The notes beneath the pieces were generated by a model. The model ran no database searches and was not told the DNA's origin. It saw only the letters and a program-made list of their open reading frames with translations. Positions 1-19,105 of a stretch of 44,108 nt of DNA are shown here, piece after piece. The DNA is from a virus (Duplodnaviria; Heunggongvirae; Uroviricota; Caudoviricetes): IMG/VR virus record IMGVR_UViG_2529292919_000018; one strand, given 5' to 3'. Each line of letters begins with the position of its first letter. The stretch's first letter is position 1. Made by a program: the position numbers and the translations under genes.

Positions 1-1119
1 TCAAATAACCAACTTAACCCATTCCTGACCTCGAGTATCGTTATAGCGATCGGTGGTTGCCTGGACTTTATGTCCTAGTAATGTTTTTGTATCAATACCC
101 TGTGCACGGTACAGCCGTTCTGATAGAGAGCGTTGTTCATGAAATGTTGGCGGAGTTTTTCCTGCTGGTGGAATTATCCCAGCCAGATCCCGTGCTTTGG
201 CAAAGTAGTCGCTCAGGTTGTCTTTACTCATCGGCTTCGGTTGTTTCTGGTGCCGACTATGGATTAGATATGGACTTAATATTCTGTCTCGGCACCCATC
301 AATAACTTCTTTTAACGTTATCCCAATGGCATCACAGCGTAGTGTAAGCGGTAACGCCAGACGCATTCCGGTTTTTCCCTGGGTGATATGCAAGTGTTCG
401 TTCCACACATCTGAAAAACGCATGTGGCAAATGTCATCACGGCGCTGACCAGTAACAATCGCAAGAAGCATTGCGTTACGGATAAAGTGTTTTTCAGGCG
501 TTGCATTGTAAATTTTTTGCCAGTCTTCCATGGTGAGCCTGGCTCTGGTTACTTTAGGGATCGGTTTACGGGTAGCCTCCGGAGGATTCCATCCAGGAGG
601 AACTTCCCCTGCATGCTGTGCTTCTTTATAAATATCAACCCATAATCCACGATTTACTCTCGCTGTGCTGACCATGTCTTTATCCAGCCACTCATCCAGT
701 ATTAATGCAAAGTCTCTTACTTCCAGTTCTTTCAATGGGTGGTTTCCCAGACGGGAAACCAGGTATGCAGCCATTCGGGTTTTTTCTTTGTGAGTTGTAG
801 CTGCAATATCTCCATTTTTCAGTCGCGTGTCCTGTATTTTCAGATATCGATCAACCCATGCCTTTAATCTGATACCCCGACGTTTTGTTGCTGACGGACT
901 TTCATCAATTTTGCGCATGAAATATTCAGCTTCTGCTGCAGCTATTCGCTGATTGGCTGTGGAAGCGATTTTTTCTGCCTTACCTTTGTCTGTTCCGAGT
1001 CCGTGAAATTTTCCAGTCACAGGATTTTTATACTGGTAGTAAACTCTGCCAGTTCTGCGATCAAACTTTTCGTAAAGACCGGCTACGTCAGTGCTGTTTT
1101 TTCGTGGCCTCGGTGACAT
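1..1119 (-). CDS. int: Tyrosine-type site-specific integrase (lambda Int family)
   Basis: 372-aa ORF ending exactly at window start; C-terminal catalytic region with R...HxxR...Y pattern (TFHEQRSLSERLY, LLGHK, TTDRYNDTR); N-terminal arm-binding-like region; overlapped by xis-like gene. Confidence 0.9.
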   Translation of the reverse strand: MSPRPRKNSTDVAGLYEKFDRRTGRVYYQYKNPVTGKFHGLGTDKGKAEKIASTANQRIAAAEAEYFMRKIDESPSATKRRGIRLKAWVDRYLKIQDTRLKNGDIAATTHKEKTRMAAYLVSRLGNHPLKELEVRDFALILDEWLDKDMVSTARVNRGLWVDIYKEAQHAGEVPPGWNPPEATRKPIPKVTRARLTMEDWQKIYNATPEKHFIRNAMLLAIVTGQRRDDICHMRFSDVWNEHLHITQGKTGMRLALPLTLRCDAIGITLKEVIDGCRDRILSPYLIHSRHQKQPKPMSKDNLSDYFAKARDLAGIIPPAGKTPPTFHEQRSLSERLYRAQGIDTKTLLGHKVQATTDRYNDTRGQEWVKLVI

Positions 1120-1357
1120 GAGTTAAAATCTCCTTCAGTGCATCATCATCGCCAGTATGAATTTCCGGCGCAATTCCCGTTTCACCAGGCCCAACAAATA
1201 CTGCTCGGCGATCTATCAGCCAACGCCCACGAATTTTTTGTGGTCTTGGAACGATGTATCCTAGTTTTCCGTATTTCACCAGGGTAGTGTTTGTTATTGG
1301 GAGACTGAACCGTTTTGGTTTCCACTCGTCGAGCGTTATCAGGTACTGTTCGCTCAT
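1088..1357 (-). CDS. Putative excisionase / small DNA-binding protein
   Basis: 89-aa ORF from ATG at 1357 with GGAG RBS; 3' end overlaps the int start, the classic xis-int arrangement. No motif recognised; call is positional. Confidence 0.45.
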   Translation of the reverse strand: MSEQYLITLDEWKPKRFSLPITNTTLVKYGKLGYIVPRPQKIRGRWLIDRRAVFVGPGETGIAPEIHTGDDDALKEILTHVTEATKKQH

Positions 1358-1418
1358 GGCTATCACTCCGGAACGCGCCAGTTGCAGAATATCAACGACA
1401 ACTGGCGACGGTTGAACA

Positions 1419-3890
1419 TTAAAAATCAGCCTGATTCGGGATCAGTTTTTGCCAGATAGCTGAAACGTATTTTGCCTGGTGACGAGCGTCATCAAGTGCA
1501 TTATGGCGCTCACCTTCGAATGGAATAGCCGTTCTGGCATCGAAGTCTATGGCTTTCCCCAGCTCAACGATTGTGCGTACATCGCGATCGTTGTAGTAAC
1601 GCCACGGGCAGGGGATCCCCTGCCGTTCGTATGAACGGCGCAAAATCGTGTTGTCGAAGTTGGCTCCATTTCCCCAAACCTGAACAAAAAATTCACCGGA
1701 GTTTTCGTCGATAAATTCCCGCAATTGTAACAGTGCATCATCTAACGGGATTTCATCGGTCATAATGGCAGATTGCGCTTCGCGTGATTGCTTAAGCCAC
1801 CATTTAATGGTGTCCCGATCAATGACTCCGCCAGCAGTTTCCAGATCGATAGTCTTACTAAATTCCGGTCCCATATCTCCGGTTTGCGGATCGAAAAATA
1901 TTGCACCTATTGAGATGATCGGGGCATCAGGATTTTTTCCCATGGTTTCAAGGTCGATCATTAGATGGTCACACGTCCTGCTGGTGGATGTGATTTCGTG
2001 ATGACCGTTCACCTTAATTGAGTGATCTGCCGTCTCGCCAGTCTCATTATCGCTATTGTGATGCTGATTGCCGCCAGTGTTCTCCTTGTGTGGATGCTCA
2101 GCGCCTTCCATTTCCTCCGGATCATCTTCCTGAACTTCAACCTGATACTCTTCACCGAATGTTTCCTGGTATGTTGCGTCGCCCATCACCGCACCACAAT
2201 CAGGGCAGTTGCCGCCGCCGGTCTGACCGCAGGCGGTGCAGACTTTTTCCACTTCCTGTTGCACTACTGGTTCAGGTAGTTTCGTTTCTGGCTCGTTTTG
2301 TTGCGTATTTGGGCTGTTTTGTTCCGCTTTCTGGTCGTTCTGTTCCGTTTCTTGCTGGTTCTGGTTCACAGAATCGCGGGTTTCAATCCCCTTCACCCAT
2401 TTCGGATCATTCGGATCGCTAACCCCTGCAACAAATTCACCACGTGATACTGCAAGCAGTTCATCGGCGTCAGGCTGGCTGATATTGGCTGCCTGCATAA
2501 TTTTGTTTACTTCGTCAGCGGTAACTTTTACCGGCCCTGGTTGTGCGGTCGTGTCAGATGCACCAGTATTTTGTTGTGAACCTGAGTATGTACCGTTTTT
2601 GCGGGCGAAATATTCTTCTTTCGTGATTTCAGTAGCCCCTGTAGCCAGTGCCTTATCCAGACCAGAAAGTTTGTTTGCGCGACCGTATTTTTCGCTATCC
2701 TTGTCGGTGAAGAGGAAGTAGAACGGCCCTTCACGCTCTACAGATGGTTCGACTTCCACTTTGCATTCGGTTTTTTCGTTGTCCGGAATTGCCGTTTCCA
2801 CTGCATCAGTTTCTGGTACTGGCGACGAGAGAGTATCAGTTGCGCTCTGATTTCTTCCTTCATCTTCAAACACGCCCTTTGTAGTCAGGTATTCAGTAAT
2901 GTATTTGTTCAGTGCCACAGGGTCTTTGTGAATGTCGATCGGACGTTCACGGACAAGGCCAAAAATAGTCTGGCGGTCGTAGCGAAGGGCATCAGGCTGT
3001 TTGCGCATTGATGCCGAGATACGCTTCCAGTCTTCGCGGTCGTTGTCGATAACTTCTTTTTTTGCCCAGCGATGGATGCTGCCGTCAATGTTTCCGGCAT
3101 CCACATCACCAGGCCAGAGAGCGTAGGCCAGTTCGTCATCCAGTGTTTTCCATGTCTGCTTGTATTCGCGATGAGTGGCAGCAATGACCGGGCTGATTTT
3201 TCCTGTTGAATTTTCAGTGTTCTGTTGATTGGCTCTGGCGCGGGCGAGATCAACAACAGACGTGTATTTTCCGGTTTCCTTGCGTTCACCTTCGCGACGT
3301 TTTTTCCAGATGCGCATCTCTGCCTGAATTTCGGGCCATTTGGCACCAGGCTTACATTTATGCTTAACCCACCCGATGGCATGCAGCTTAAGCTCCGGAT
3401 ACATGGCGTTAACTTCTGGCATTTTCATCAACGCTTCAACGATATGTCCGTCGAATGTTGCCATGTCTTCCTGCAACAATTCCTGTGCGCTAATCACCAT
3501 ATCAACGGTGATGTTTTCACATGTGTCGAACTTAACCATGACAGCGTTCTGTACTTCAGGGGCCAGCTTGTCAAAAGTGACGTTCATCGGATCGGATTCA
3601 GTCTCAACCGGGACAAAAGAAGCAGAATCCTCATCCCAGCGGTTTTCCTGCATATATTCAGCATCCCATGAATCGAGGGCAGGGCGGGGTATGCCAGGTT
3701 TATCCTCGCAGACAATAAATTTATAAGCGCAGTCCTGAGCAGCCGGATAATGTTCCAGGAATTGCCAGTGAAATTTTGCTCGAGCACGGCGTTCGTCGCC
3801 AGCTTCAATGGCTGTGGCTACAGCCACAGCGCCTTCTTCCCTTGTTGCCAGTTCGTCAGGAATAGCGGCGCAAATAAAGACTTTACTCAT
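1419..3890 (-). CDS. Large multidomain protein with C-terminal DEDDh (DnaQ-like) 3'-5' exonuclease domain, zinc ribbon and acidic low-complexity linker (YdfE-like?)
   Basis: Start set to ATG at 3890 (MSKVF, GAGG RBS) rather than track start 3926. C-terminus has Exo I IDLETMG, Exo II WGNGANFD, Exo III HNALDDA. Central Q/E/T-rich segment and CTACGQTGGGNCPDCGA Cys4 ribbon. Confidence 0.75.
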   Translation of the reverse strand: MSKVFICAAIPDELATREEGAVAVATAIEAGDERRARAKFHWQFLEHYPAAQDCAYKFIVCEDKPGIPRPALDSWDAEYMQENRWDEDSASFVPVETESDPMNVTFDKLAPEVQNAVMVKFDTCENITVDMVISAQELLQEDMATFDGHIVEALMKMPEVNAMYPELKLHAIGWVKHKCKPGAKWPEIQAEMRIWKKRREGERKETGKYTSVVDLARARANQQNTENSTGKISPVIAATHREYKQTWKTLDDELAYALWPGDVDAGNIDGSIHRWAKKEVIDNDREDWKRISASMRKQPDALRYDRQTIFGLVRERPIDIHKDPVALNKYITEYLTTKGVFEDEGRNQSATDTLSSPVPETDAVETAIPDNEKTECKVEVEPSVEREGPFYFLFTDKDSEKYGRANKLSGLDKALATGATEITKEEYFARKNGTYSGSQQNTGASDTTAQPGPVKVTADEVNKIMQAANISQPDADELLAVSRGEFVAGVSDPNDPKWVKGIETRDSVNQNQQETEQNDQKAEQNSPNTQQNEPETKLPEPVVQQEVEKVCTACGQTGGGNCPDCGAVMGDATYQETFGEEYQVEVQEDDPEEMEGAEHPHKENTGGNQHHNSDNETGETADHSIKVNGHHEITSTSRTCDHLMIDLETMGKNPDAPIISIGAIFFDPQTGDMGPEFSKTIDLETAGGVIDRDTIKWWLKQSREAQSAIMTDEIPLDDALLQLREFIDENSGEFFVQVWGNGANFDNTILRRSYERQGIPCPWRYYNDRDVRTIVELGKAIDFDARTAIPFEGERHNALDDARHQAKYVSAIWQKLIPNQADF

Positions 3891-3982
3891 TTGTTTTAAC
3901 CTCATGACAGATTTAAGGATGAACAAATCCCTGCCATTGCTGGCATATAAGAATGAAACCGGATATTTATTACGGAACTGTT

Positions 3983-4174
3983 TTAAAGACCTGCCGGGAT
4001 TTCGATATTATCCTGGTGAATAACTTTATCGACCGGGTAACAGTTACCGGGAATTTTCTGTTCGGTTGCTGCAGTCATACACTACTGCATTGTCCTGTGA
4101 ACACTGACTGCAATATCAACTGGCTCTCCGGAAACAAGAAAAACTGTCAGAACAAGCACAAATGCTGAATTCAT
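3983..4174 (-). pseudogene. ydfD: ydfD-like small lysis-protein gene interrupted by in-frame amber codon (TAG on the minus strand at 4082-4084)
   Basis: ATG at 4174 overlaps dicB stop (ATGA). Frame reads MNSAFVLVLTVFLVSGEPVDIAVSVHRTMQ, then TAG, then 32 more sense codons (CMTAATEQKIPGNCYPVDKVIHQDNIEIPAGL) to TAA. Total 63 codons, matching my recollection of K-12 YdfD length. Confidence 0.45.
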
Positions 4175-4359
4175 TGTGCACATCCTTTTGGCATCAGACG
4201 TAAACGAGCCAGCATTGAAACAATGCATATTTTATTTAATAGCTCCCGTTCTTGTTTTCTCTTGTTAATGGCATCTTCAGTAAATACTGGGTTACTGATA
4301 GTGACACCAATTTCAAAACAACCTTCAGACGTATTAACGTTTGGTAATAACGTTTTCAT
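4171..4359 (-). CDS. dicB: Cell-division inhibitor DicB
   Basis: 62-aa frame MKTLLPNVNTSEGCFEIGVTISNPVFTEDAINKRKQERELLNKICIVSMLARLRLMPKGCAQ (internal Met of track ORF 4171..4464); matches recalled K-12 DicB; downstream of DicF on same strand. Confidence 0.8.
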   Translation of the reverse strand: MKTLLPNVNTSEGCFEIGVTISNPVFTEDAINKRKQERELLNKICIVSMLARLRLMPKGCAQ

Positions 4360-4528
4360 TATCGCGTCCTCAACAATGAATTTTGTGATGCAGTGCCTGG
4401 TGCCTCCAGGTGACGTTAACCAGTTAACAATTAACGCCGGATACAGAGAATCCACCCATAACACTGTTTTTGGTTTTAACTGTTCCGCGTGCGCTCAGCC
4501 GCATTCACCACATCACAAAATTCACTTT

Positions 4529-4586
4529 AAAAAGGGCGGCAGAGCAGTCACGGAGTAAAACTGATACCGCCAAACGTCACCAGAAA
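4529..4586 (-). ncRNA. dicF: DicF small regulatory RNA (ftsZ-targeting) with intrinsic terminator
   Basis: Minus strand reads TTTCTGGTGACGTTTGGCGGTATCAGTTTTACTCCGTGACTGCTCTGCCGCCCTTTTT: GC stem (GGCGG...CTGCCGCC) plus U-run, matching my memory of DicF; sits between ydfC-like gene and dicB. Ends +/- a few nt. Confidence 0.75.
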
Positions 4587-18006: not shown

Positions 18007-19056
18007 ATGATTAATACTGTAAAAATATCCAGTTGTGAGTTAATCAACGCTGATTGTCTGGAATTTATCCAGACCTTACCGGAAAATTCTGTCGATCTGA
18101 TAGTCACAGACCCGCCATACTTTAAAGTGAAGCCCGAGGGCTGGGATAACCAGTGGAAGGGCGACGATGATTACCTGAAATGGCTGGACCAGTGTCTGGC
18201 GCAGTTCTGGCGGGTACTGAAGCCTGCCGGAAGTCTTTACCTGTTCTGTGGTCATCGCCTGGCATCTGACACCGAAATCATGATGCGTGAGCGCTTTAAT
18301 GTGCTGAACCACATTATCTGGGCGAAGCCGTCCGGACGCTGGAACGGGTGCAATAAGGAAAGTCTGCGGGCGTATTTTCCGGCAACAGAGCGCATTCTGT
18401 TTGCAGAACATTATCAGGGACCGTATCGCCCGAAAGATGATGGCTATGTGGTACAGGGGCGCGGGCTAAAACAGCACGTCATGGCCCCGCTGATTTCTTA
18501 CTTTCGTGATGCGCGTAAATCACTGGGAATAACGTCAAAACAGATAGCGGAAGCCACCGGAAAGAAAAACATGGCTTCGCACTGGTTTGGTACCAGTCAG
18601 TGGCAGTTACCGAACGAGGGTGATTACAACAAATTGCAGGCGTTGTTTGCGCGTGTTGCGGCAGAAAAACATCAGCGCGGGGAACTGGAAAAGCCACACC
18701 ACCAGCTGGTCAGCACATACAGTGAGCTGAACCGGCAGTATACGGAACTGCTGAGTGAATATAAAAATTTGCGGCGGTATTTCGGTGTGACGGCGCAGGT
18801 TCCGTACACCGATGTCTGGACGCATAAACCGGTGCAGTACTATCCAGGGAAACATCCGTGCGAAAAACCGGCAGAAATGCTGCAGCAGATAATCAACGCG
18901 AGCAGTCGTCCGGGAGACCTGGTTGCAGATTTTTTTATGGGTTCAGGTTCAACGGTAAAAGCGGCGATGGCACTGGGGCGTCGTGCGATTGGTGTTGAGC
19001 TGGAGACCGGACGTTTTGAACAGACAGTCAGGGAAGTTCAGGATTTAATCGTTTGA
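18007..19056 (+). CDS. DNA methyltransferase (N6-adenine/N4-cytosine, beta-class; orphan)
   Basis: Motif IV DLIVTDPPYF near N-terminus and AdoMet motif I FFMGSGSTVKAA near C-terminus; no adjacent restriction endonuclease gene. Confidence 0.85.
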   Translation: MINTVKISSCELINADCLEFIQTLPENSVDLIVTDPPYFKVKPEGWDNQWKGDDDYLKWLDQCLAQFWRVLKPAGSLYLFCGHRLASDTEIMMRERFNVLNHIIWAKPSGRWNGCNKESLRAYFPATERILFAEHYQGPYRPKDDGYVVQGRGLKQHVMAPLISYFRDARKSLGITSKQIAEATGKKNMASHWFGTSQWQLPNEGDYNKLQALFARVAAEKHQRGELEKPHHQLVSTYSELNRQYTELLSEYKNLRRYFGVTAQVPYTDVWTHKPVQYYPGKHPCEKPAEMLQQIINASSRPGDLVADFFMGSGSTVKAAMALGRRAIGVELETGRFEQTVREVQDLIV

Positions 19057-19105
19057 AACGGATGAGATTGCAGAATTAATTACGCACCATTATTATTCTG
19101 CTCCC

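Follow-up and report, generated by a model that had tools for sequence, protein, structure and literature searches.

Domain organization of an early-region prophage protein

The stretch of DNA analysed here (the window; 44,108 nucleotides, virus record IMGVR_UViG_2529292919_000018) carries on its minus strand a gene for a protein of 823 amino acids, whose coding sequence including the stop codon occupies positions 1419..3890. It is followed directly and on the same strand by xis (1088-1366) and int (1-1119), next to which the preliminary description of this DNA had placed it, with neither recT nor bet in between (1..1366), and it is preceded in the same leftward operon by ydfD, dicB and the small RNA DicF (4082..4585, minus strand). 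The six-frame list of open reading frames holds a longer frame (1419..3926) that starts from TTG; the ATG at 3890 is the start also called by RefSeq for the same 823-residue product, and a GAGG ribosome-binding site (3900..3903, minus strand) lies 9 nt upstream of it. The protein is 99.8% identical to E2348C_RS06490 (WP_000048294.1, 'exonuclease') of E. coli O127:H6 E2348/69, whose gene sits in a prophage integrated beside potC, and over its initial 19.3 kb the window is 99.74% identical to this prophage. Judged from its sequence, the protein combines a scaffold of the RecE type with a DEDDh domain of the Rv2179c/DexA family, which has taken the place of the C-terminal PD-(D/E)XK nuclease.

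The C-terminal part (residues 641-823; 1419..1970, on the minus strand like all coordinates within the gene) is predicted to form a DEDDh 3′-5′ exonuclease domain of this Rv2179c-like/DexA family. It carries the three motifs that had been noticed beforehand, Exo I DLETMG (residues 646-651, with D646 and E648; 1938..1955), Exo II WGNGANFD (residues 739-746, with D746; 1653..1676) and Exo III HNALDDA (residues 796-802, with H796 and D801; 1485..1505). A DEDD-family profile match was sought and found: PF16473, the Rv2179c-like 3′-5′ exoribonuclease domain, covers residues 642-813 with an E-value of 6.5e-68 and 228.3 bits (cut-off 27), over profile positions 2-177 of 177. All five catalytic residues are present: an alignment of 15 sequences (the window protein, T4 DexA and 13 homologues) places D646, E648, D746 and H796 in columns without variation and D801 in one with hardly any. 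Sequence searches retrieved as solved structures only 8KEL (E 1.4e-6) and 8KEN (E 1.3e-5), two forms of a 227-residue exodeoxyribonuclease, the former of which is described as T4 DexA in a paper citing the structure. Matches to YqaJ/PD-(D/E)XK nucleases were absent from Pfam, NCBIfam and PDB for the window protein, as were Pfam matches to PDDEXK/DUF3799. A phmmer search with RecE residues 601-866 found nothing in P0121, a 97%-identical representative, and the BLASTP alignment to RecE stops at RecE residue 591.

The statement that the protein does not look like lambda Exo or a RecE-type PD-(D/E)XK nuclease holds for the catalytic domain but not for the region in front of it, as residues 262-625 (2016..3107) are homologous to RecE of the Rac prophage and align with its residues 278-591 at 39% identity (E 6e-60, BLASTP against K-12 RecE). 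Similarity rises markedly beyond about residue 470, in a part comprising the segment 'SRGEFV.G.SDPNDPKWVKG', a Cys4 knuckle and an acidic tail. The NCBI RecE equivalog model NF007259 matches residues 237-625 over model positions 260-602 of 877 and scores 271 bits against a cut-off of 1269. At the DNA level, recE of Rac-SA53 is 83.7% identical over nucleotides 1453-1856 of the gene, which places the likely exchange point in the linker just before the nuclease. This linker (residues 567-640; 1971..2192) is acidic and His-rich, with a net charge of about -15 and a ratio of nonsynonymous to synonymous substitution rates (dN/dS) of 0.3-0.6, and, being the place where the RecE homology stops, it is likely to be the recombination joint.

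The Cys4 ribbon and the low-complexity acidic linker previously placed ahead of the nuclease are both present. Residues 501-550 consist of 20% Q, 18% E and 12% N (net charge -7), and the net charge over residues 571-640 is -15. The knuckle CTACGQTGGGNCPDCG (CTACG/CPDCG, residues 551-566; 2193..2240), a putative zinc ribbon, presents C551, C554, C562 and C565. The same knuckle occurs in RecE and in the relatives P0123, P0124, P0148, P0184 and P0204 and is absent from most other DEDDh fusions, and is thus a feature of the RecE-type linker rather than of the nuclease fusion as such. Since both ribbon and linker are parts of RecE, the protein is to be seen as a RecE-scaffold chimera and not as an unrelated protein.

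Modelling of residues 1-470 with AlphaFold2, for which 52 diverse homologues were used, gave four confident modules and three disordered linkers, the latter of low predicted local distance difference test score (pLDDT) at residues 206-237, 344-384 and 438-458. An alpha/beta module is predicted for residues 1-100 (pLDDT about 90) and a helical one for residues 105-205 (about 93). Together these two subdomains (residues 1-205; 3276..3890; pLDDT 86-95; dN/dS 0.06-0.15) correspond to the Pfam families YdfE_N (PF27430) and YdfE_C (PF27432), an assignment made via homologues of the same region that carry both. The third module is RecE-like and helical (residues 245-340; 2871..3158), aligns by BLASTP with RecE 278-350 and reaches a pLDDT of 78-89 (about 87) with a dN/dS of 0.06-0.08. 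The fourth, a small beta/alpha module (GPFYF...GRANK...EITKEEYxARK; residues 388-437; 2580..2729), has a pLDDT of 74-85 and a dN/dS of 0.06-0.07 at a dS of 0.6; residues 388-432 are modelled as two hairpins and a helix (pLDDT about 80). It is kept in all scaffolds with a YdfE-type N-terminus, with invariant columns at G388, P389, F390, Y391, R404, N406, K407, E421, I422, E426 and K431. The description of the N-terminal 330 residues as unassigned has been overtaken in that the Pfam families YdfE_N and YdfE_C now exist for the N-terminus, but stands in that neither a function nor an informative fold match has emerged for it. When YdfE-type and RecE-type (PF06630) N-termini were compared by hhalign, 133 collinear columns were aligned at a probability of 28%.

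The N-terminal region also ties the gene to a locus of K-12. The suspicion that the window gene might be the intact form of the truncated K-12 gene ydfE was borne out: 252 of 256 residues (98%) are identical, after which an IS2 element interrupts the K-12 copy. That copy (b1577), a pseudogene carried by the Qin prophage, sits directly behind dicB and ydfD; its 3′ end is overlapped by IS2E, and the intQ pseudogene comes after it. Residues 1-205 represent the portion surviving in K-12 ydfE. On this sequence comparison we regard the window gene as the intact form of the pseudogene.

Selection, distribution and operon context

In comparisons with three phage alleles, dN/dS amounts to 0.06-0.15 in the folded modules wherever dS is measurable and to 0.6-0.9 in the predicted linkers. 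As the ratio is low in the folded parts and higher in the linkers, the frame is not a chance open reading frame; purifying selection acts on every folded module. The dS along the gene against a single allele (of the phages Tritos, Evi or PhiR42_1) ranges from 0 to 1.13 and changes abruptly; against Evi, for example, it is 0 at residues 245-340 and 1.13 in the DEDDh domain. These swings show that the alleles are patchworks arising from ongoing recombination within the gene. Decay of the gene was considered as well; dN/dS argues against it, yet the gene is frameshifted in PPompW/Stx2a records, as detailed below, and truncated in K-12.

In E. coli, the gene ranks with the commonest of prophage genes. 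Matching DNA is present in 4799 of 5426 complete E. coli genomes, the median number of places per genome being 2 and the maximum 10, and a match covering at least 80% of the gene in 3533 of the 5426 (about 65%). Isolated phages that have the gene include mEp460_ev081, Tritos, HannyBb, PhiR42_1 and Evi. PHROG 2082 ('exonuclease') matches the protein end to end, while names in RefSeq and GenBank vary between 'exonuclease', '3′-5′ exonuclease', '3′-5′ exoribonuclease domain-containing protein' and 'exodeoxyribonuclease VIII'. The last of these labels comes from the shared non-catalytic region and implies the wrong polarity and mechanism. The gene as such is already catalogued (RefSeq, PHROGs, Pfam YdfE_N/YdfE_C), and PMC12315714 has dealt with the class of phages to which it belongs; what is added here are the domain parse, the proposed exchange of the nuclease on a RecE scaffold, the link to gp34 of phage epsilon34 and the combinatorial exchange of effectors. 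Once the protein is recognized as a RecE scaffold bearing another nuclease, the confusion in naming is accounted for and K-12 ydfE gains an identity.

Upstream of the gene, dicB (4171-4359) and the DicF RNA (4534-4585, minus strand; 76.7 bits against Rfam) look intact, and the Qin-type neighbours further include ydfC, ydfB, ydfA and a DicA-like repressor. The Qin-type lysis gene ydfD (4082-4174, minus strand) ends with a stop after 30 codons (MNSAF...HRTMQ*) instead of 63, and the annotation of E2348/69 flags an internal stop. No promoter-like or convincing terminator-like site divides the gene from its neighbours on the minus strand; the promoter scan relied on a consensus and returned fewer promoter-like sites than shuffled sequences did, none of them on the minus strand near the gene.

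Neither a single-strand annealing protein (SSAP) gene nor an anti-RecBCD gene lies between repressor and int in the window, and no annealase or Gam/Abc2 gene is annotated in the 19 kb shared with the E2348/69 prophage. The only other recombination-related gene annotated there encodes a RusA-family Holliday-junction resolvase; it and a DNA methyltransferase gene (about 16433-16798 and 18011-19060, plus strand, positioned by offset from the E2348/69 annotation) lie between the replication and lysis genes. Chi octamers (GCTGGTGG) occur 16 times in the window against 1.44 expected from dinucleotide shuffles, 12 of them on the plus strand, at positions including 164, 1980, 15414 and 38994, and the site at 1980-1987 falls inside the exonuclease gene. 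Over-representation of Chi is the pattern described for lambdoid phages without an anti-RecBCD gene.

Five examples of the DEDDh nuclease were inspected in their gene neighbourhoods, namely the window together with E2348/69, Tritos, vB_EcoS-689R5, the Citrobacter phage Chris1 and PhiR47_1, in which the nuclease stands alone. In four of them the leftward operon ends with it, or with one more gene after it, ahead of xis or int; the stretch read downstream of it in PhiR47_1 shows only a hypothetical gene and a PanT/PanA pair. An adjacent annealing-protein gene was missing from all five, which excludes a two-component pair of the RecET or Red kind.

Elsewhere in the window, downstream of the replication genes, a Septu anti-phage system was found (10994-12989, plus strand), consisting of the AAA ATPase PtuA (457 residues, E 2e-165) and the HNH nuclease PtuB (about 211 residues, E 1e-83). 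A DUF5677 gene (9113-9955), a broken integrase and an IS481 copy lie beside it, so that the system looks like an inserted defence islet.

Relatives of the scaffold and their terminal domains

To collect relatives, 1.84 billion representative proteins were searched and the domains of the matches mapped; in a further homologue search, which had given almost only E. coli fragments, diverse sequences surfaced once the E. coli sequence was dropped from the query alignment. Among these relatives, both ends of the scaffold are exchangeable. A RecE-type N-terminus (PF06630) is joined to a DEDDh domain in P0123, P0126 and eight others (P0133, P0134 and P0136 included), whereas the window protein combines the DEDDh domain with a YdfE-type N-terminus. 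The latter is followed in P0140 by a PDDEXK-like domain (DUF3799; PD-(D/E)XK), and P0161 has a mixed front with weak matches to both RecE_N and the YdfE type, the shared middle and the RecE nuclease. In a large group from Enterobacter, Klebsiella and Citrobacter that includes P0155 and P0137, the YdfE-type N-terminus is combined with a C-terminus that stays below the Pfam threshold.

The proteins of this last group are labelled 'exodeoxyribonuclease VIII' by NCBI, yet contain no recognisable nuclease. P0155 itself stems from Enterobacter hormaechei (loci L007/L008, 6001-8370) and has about 100 relatives; a Sipho_Gp157 gene comes after these proteins. The group shares the C-terminal motif KKSLTDAxKKALSxLGFSADVWLGLYD, at which Pfam Rad52_Rad22 matched below threshold in all five members tested (E about 0.003; 17.7 versus 20.3 bits). 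An hhalign comparison of this C-terminus with a human RAD52 N-terminal sequence aligned 114 collinear columns at 27% identity with a non-significant probability of 3.8%. Sequence and profile searches of PDB were empty or insignificant, and Foldseek with the full-length AlphaFold2 model returned no Rad52. The C-terminus is possibly a Rad52-like annealase domain, which we treat as a lead and not as a finding. The proteins are probably mis-named and may be fusions of scaffold and annealase; they may also be the 'RecE-2' proteins that PMC12315714 describes as being without a nuclease domain. A further variant of the scaffold, P0129 of Enterobacter (L010/L011, 5001-7109; 702 residues), occupies the same position before xis-int, and its C-terminal ~250 residues match only PHROG 26058, of unknown function, and no Pfam family.

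A more general notion would be that the YdfE/RecE N-terminal scaffold serves enterobacterial lambdoid phages as a delivery platform that brings interchangeable DNA-end effectors, be it a 5′-3′ PD-(D/E)XK exonuclease, a 3′-5′ DEDDh exonuclease or a Rad52-like annealase, to one common partner or substrate. We put this forward as a speculative extension that is rather unlikely to hold. If it were true, the DEDDh version would stand for a recombination strategy that dispenses with an annealase and has the ends prepared by a phage 3′-5′ exonuclease for the RecBCD-Chi/RecA system of the host.

Proposed role and comparison with known systems

We propose that the gene encodes an early-expressed 3′-5′ DNA-end exonuclease that would assist RecBCD/RecA-dependent phage recombination, a reading for which belief and doubt are about evenly balanced. 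That the domain would act as a metal-dependent 3′-5′ exonuclease on DNA and be expressed early from the leftward promoter pL is a part of it in which we have fair confidence. According to this proposal, the scaffold (residues 1-640) would carry the DEDDh exonuclease where RecE has its 5′-3′ PD-(D/E)XK nuclease, and the gene would be the final one ahead of xis-int to be read from the leftward early promoter. The enzyme would act on intermediates of phage replication or recombination and shorten their 3′ DNA ends, for example by blunting them or by trimming 3′ tails and heterologies, with the scaffold tethering it to a partner or substrate, and this processing would let the host RecBCD-Chi/RecA pathway act on the phage DNA. 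Support of the host pathway is suggested because the phage has neither an annealing protein nor a RecBCD inhibitor and is rich in Chi, but our confidence that 3′-end processing for RecBCD-Chi/RecA is the gene's actual job is low. Such a job is suggested by established E. coli genetics, in which RecBCD requires single-strand exonucleases to obtain ends that it can use, and reported roles of DexA in T4 intron homing point in the same direction.

A tie of the nuclease to recombination comes from gp34 of the Salmonella phage epsilon34, a DnaQ-type protein that shares 57% identity with the entire DEDDh domain of the window protein (E 3e-73). Both genes belong to the early left operon of lambdoid phages, but gp34 is a standalone protein of 182 residues whose gene lies between those for an Erf-like annealase and SSB on one side and abc2 (anti-RecBCD) on the other, whereas the window nuclease is fused to a 640-residue scaffold and has none of these neighbours. 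Given this identity to a protein encoded within an Erf-SSB-gp34-Abc2 module, the clade of the nuclease appears to be a recombination-module clade. The epsilon34 'DnaQ' gene is called very likely a legitimate member of a Rec module in PMC12315714.

Several observations weigh against the proposed role. The authors of the same paper hold that DnaQ-type 3′-5′ exonucleases usually inhibit recombination (PMC12315714), and none of the five inspected DEDDh genes adjoins an annealing-protein gene. The sequence cannot tell specificity for DNA from that for RNA, and the Pfam family is named for the RNA exonuclease Rv2179c, although T4 DexA, another member, acts on DNA. In the literature searched, no experiments on the window protein or on YdfE were found, and a structure comparison gave no informative match for the folds of the scaffold. 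Moreover, the gene is annotated as frameshifted by a 4-bp deletion in the record of the Stx2a-converting phage Stx2_14040 (L014, 101-2568), and in the first 11 PPompW/Stx2a records listed (H31-H41) a stretch of 2468 bases aligns to the 2472-base query. These 11 records probably share the deletion, the frameshift itself having been read in one PPompW/Stx2a record and the others sharing the alignment length. From the frameshifted copies it follows that the gene is dispensable for prophage maintenance.

Among the alternatives, the one that survives best is that of a prophage defence or superinfection-exclusion nuclease directed against incoming phage nucleic acid, either DNA containing 5-hydroxymethylcytosine (5hmC) or the 3′ ends of RNA phages; we consider it unlikely. 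It draws on the homology to DexA, on the extreme frequency of the gene in E. coli prophages and on two precedents. A short E. coli homologue of DexA, EcD ('HREX'), degrades the 5hmC-containing DNA of T4 and protects cells (PMC12153337), and DEDDh exonucleases with auxiliary domains called 'TONDO', some of them in prophages, block MS2 and Qbeta (PMC13344964). The TONDOs, however, were picked as homologues of ISG20, another branch of DEDDh enzymes (PMC13344964). DexA (8KEL) and EcD share the Pfam and PHROG neighbourhood of the window nuclease, with which they align in the catalytic residues at about 24-28% identity; both are single-domain proteins, and DexA has extra loops. At two positions the window protein departs from the criteria for HREX enzymes. 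The position of DexA W152, which is needed for 5hmC recognition, is taken by a tyrosine ('KFWNQRD' versus 'RYYNDRD'), and the aspartate aligned with the tetramer contact D90 of DexA is kept ('LDD'), whereas EcD has an alanine there; it is the loss of D90 that, by the HREX criterion, gives a dimer sparing unmodified DNA (PMC12153337). PADLOC (PADLOC-DB 2.0) assigned no family to the whole protein and gave for the isolated domain only a generic match to Cas-associated DEDDh proteins (E 6.8e-7). The leftward early operon that contains the gene is furthermore repressed, and no promoter-like site serves the gene alone; the domain alternates on the same scaffold and locus with the RecE nuclease and possibly an annealase-like domain, and its closest standalone relative, epsilon34 gp34, lies in a recombination module.

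The protein might instead resemble Rv2179c in being a 3′-5′ exoribonuclease and, soon after induction, trim or degrade RNA of host or phage, with transcripts of the pL operon or small RNAs such as DicF as candidate targets, which we regard as quite unlikely. Co-transcription with DicF would fit, as would the name of the best-matching Pfam family and the designation of some RefSeq copies as exoribonuclease-domain proteins; yet the family name is the sole tie to RNA in this case. The only family member with a solved structure that was found by sequence search is the DNA exonuclease DexA, the scaffold is common to the DNA enzyme RecE, and the genes flanking the closest standalone relative are those for annealing and single-stranded DNA binding and for an anti-RecBCD protein. 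Very unlikely, finally, is an anti-defence enzyme that would remove host immune nucleic acids with free 3′ ends (retron multicopy single-stranded DNA, complementary DNA of defence-associated reverse transcriptases, linear or cyclic oligonucleotide signals), for although an early gene at the accessory end of the pL operon fits such a role and a 3′-5′ exonuclease could in principle attack such molecules, no analysis result or paper supporting it was found, and the links to RecE, to epsilon34 gp34 and to those relatives that may be Rad52-like speak for recombination.

The protein may be compared with RecE (exodeoxyribonuclease VIII) of the Rac prophage. Both are large proteins from the early left operon of lambdoid prophages with a C-terminal catalytic domain behind a long flexible linker, and they share the helical middle, the DPNDPKW segment, the Cys4 knuckle and the acidic tail. 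They differ at either end: the nuclease of RecE is of the PD-(D/E)XK type (5′-3′) and that of the window protein of the DEDDh type (3′-5′), leaving RecE 600-866 unaligned, and the N-terminus of RecE belongs to PF06630 whereas the N-terminal 260 residues of the window protein are of the YdfE type. Furthermore, recE adjoins recT in Rac, whereas the window gene is followed by xis and has no adjacent recT. The swapped nuclease offers a natural experiment on the purpose of the long and enigmatic non-catalytic part of RecE. K-12 ydfE has dicB and ydfD upstream and int downstream like the window gene, but being cut after residue 256 it is without the RecE-like middle, the linker and the nuclease.

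A close counterpart is found in phage Tritos, whose gene TRITO_27 is 94.6% identical and lies in the same order as in the window, namely cI, ydfA/B/C, DicF, dicB, ydfD, the nuclease gene, xis and int. The 'Tritos' class, of which this phage is the prototype, is characterized in PMC12315714 by the presence of the nuclease, the absence of an annealing protein (SAP) and of an anti-RecBCD function, and abundant Chi sites on the top strand. The window prophage belongs to this class and shows no difference of substance from it. In such a Chi-rich background without annealase and Gam, a role of a 3′-5′ exonuclease in phage recombination would become testable in culturable phages such as Tritos and mEp460.

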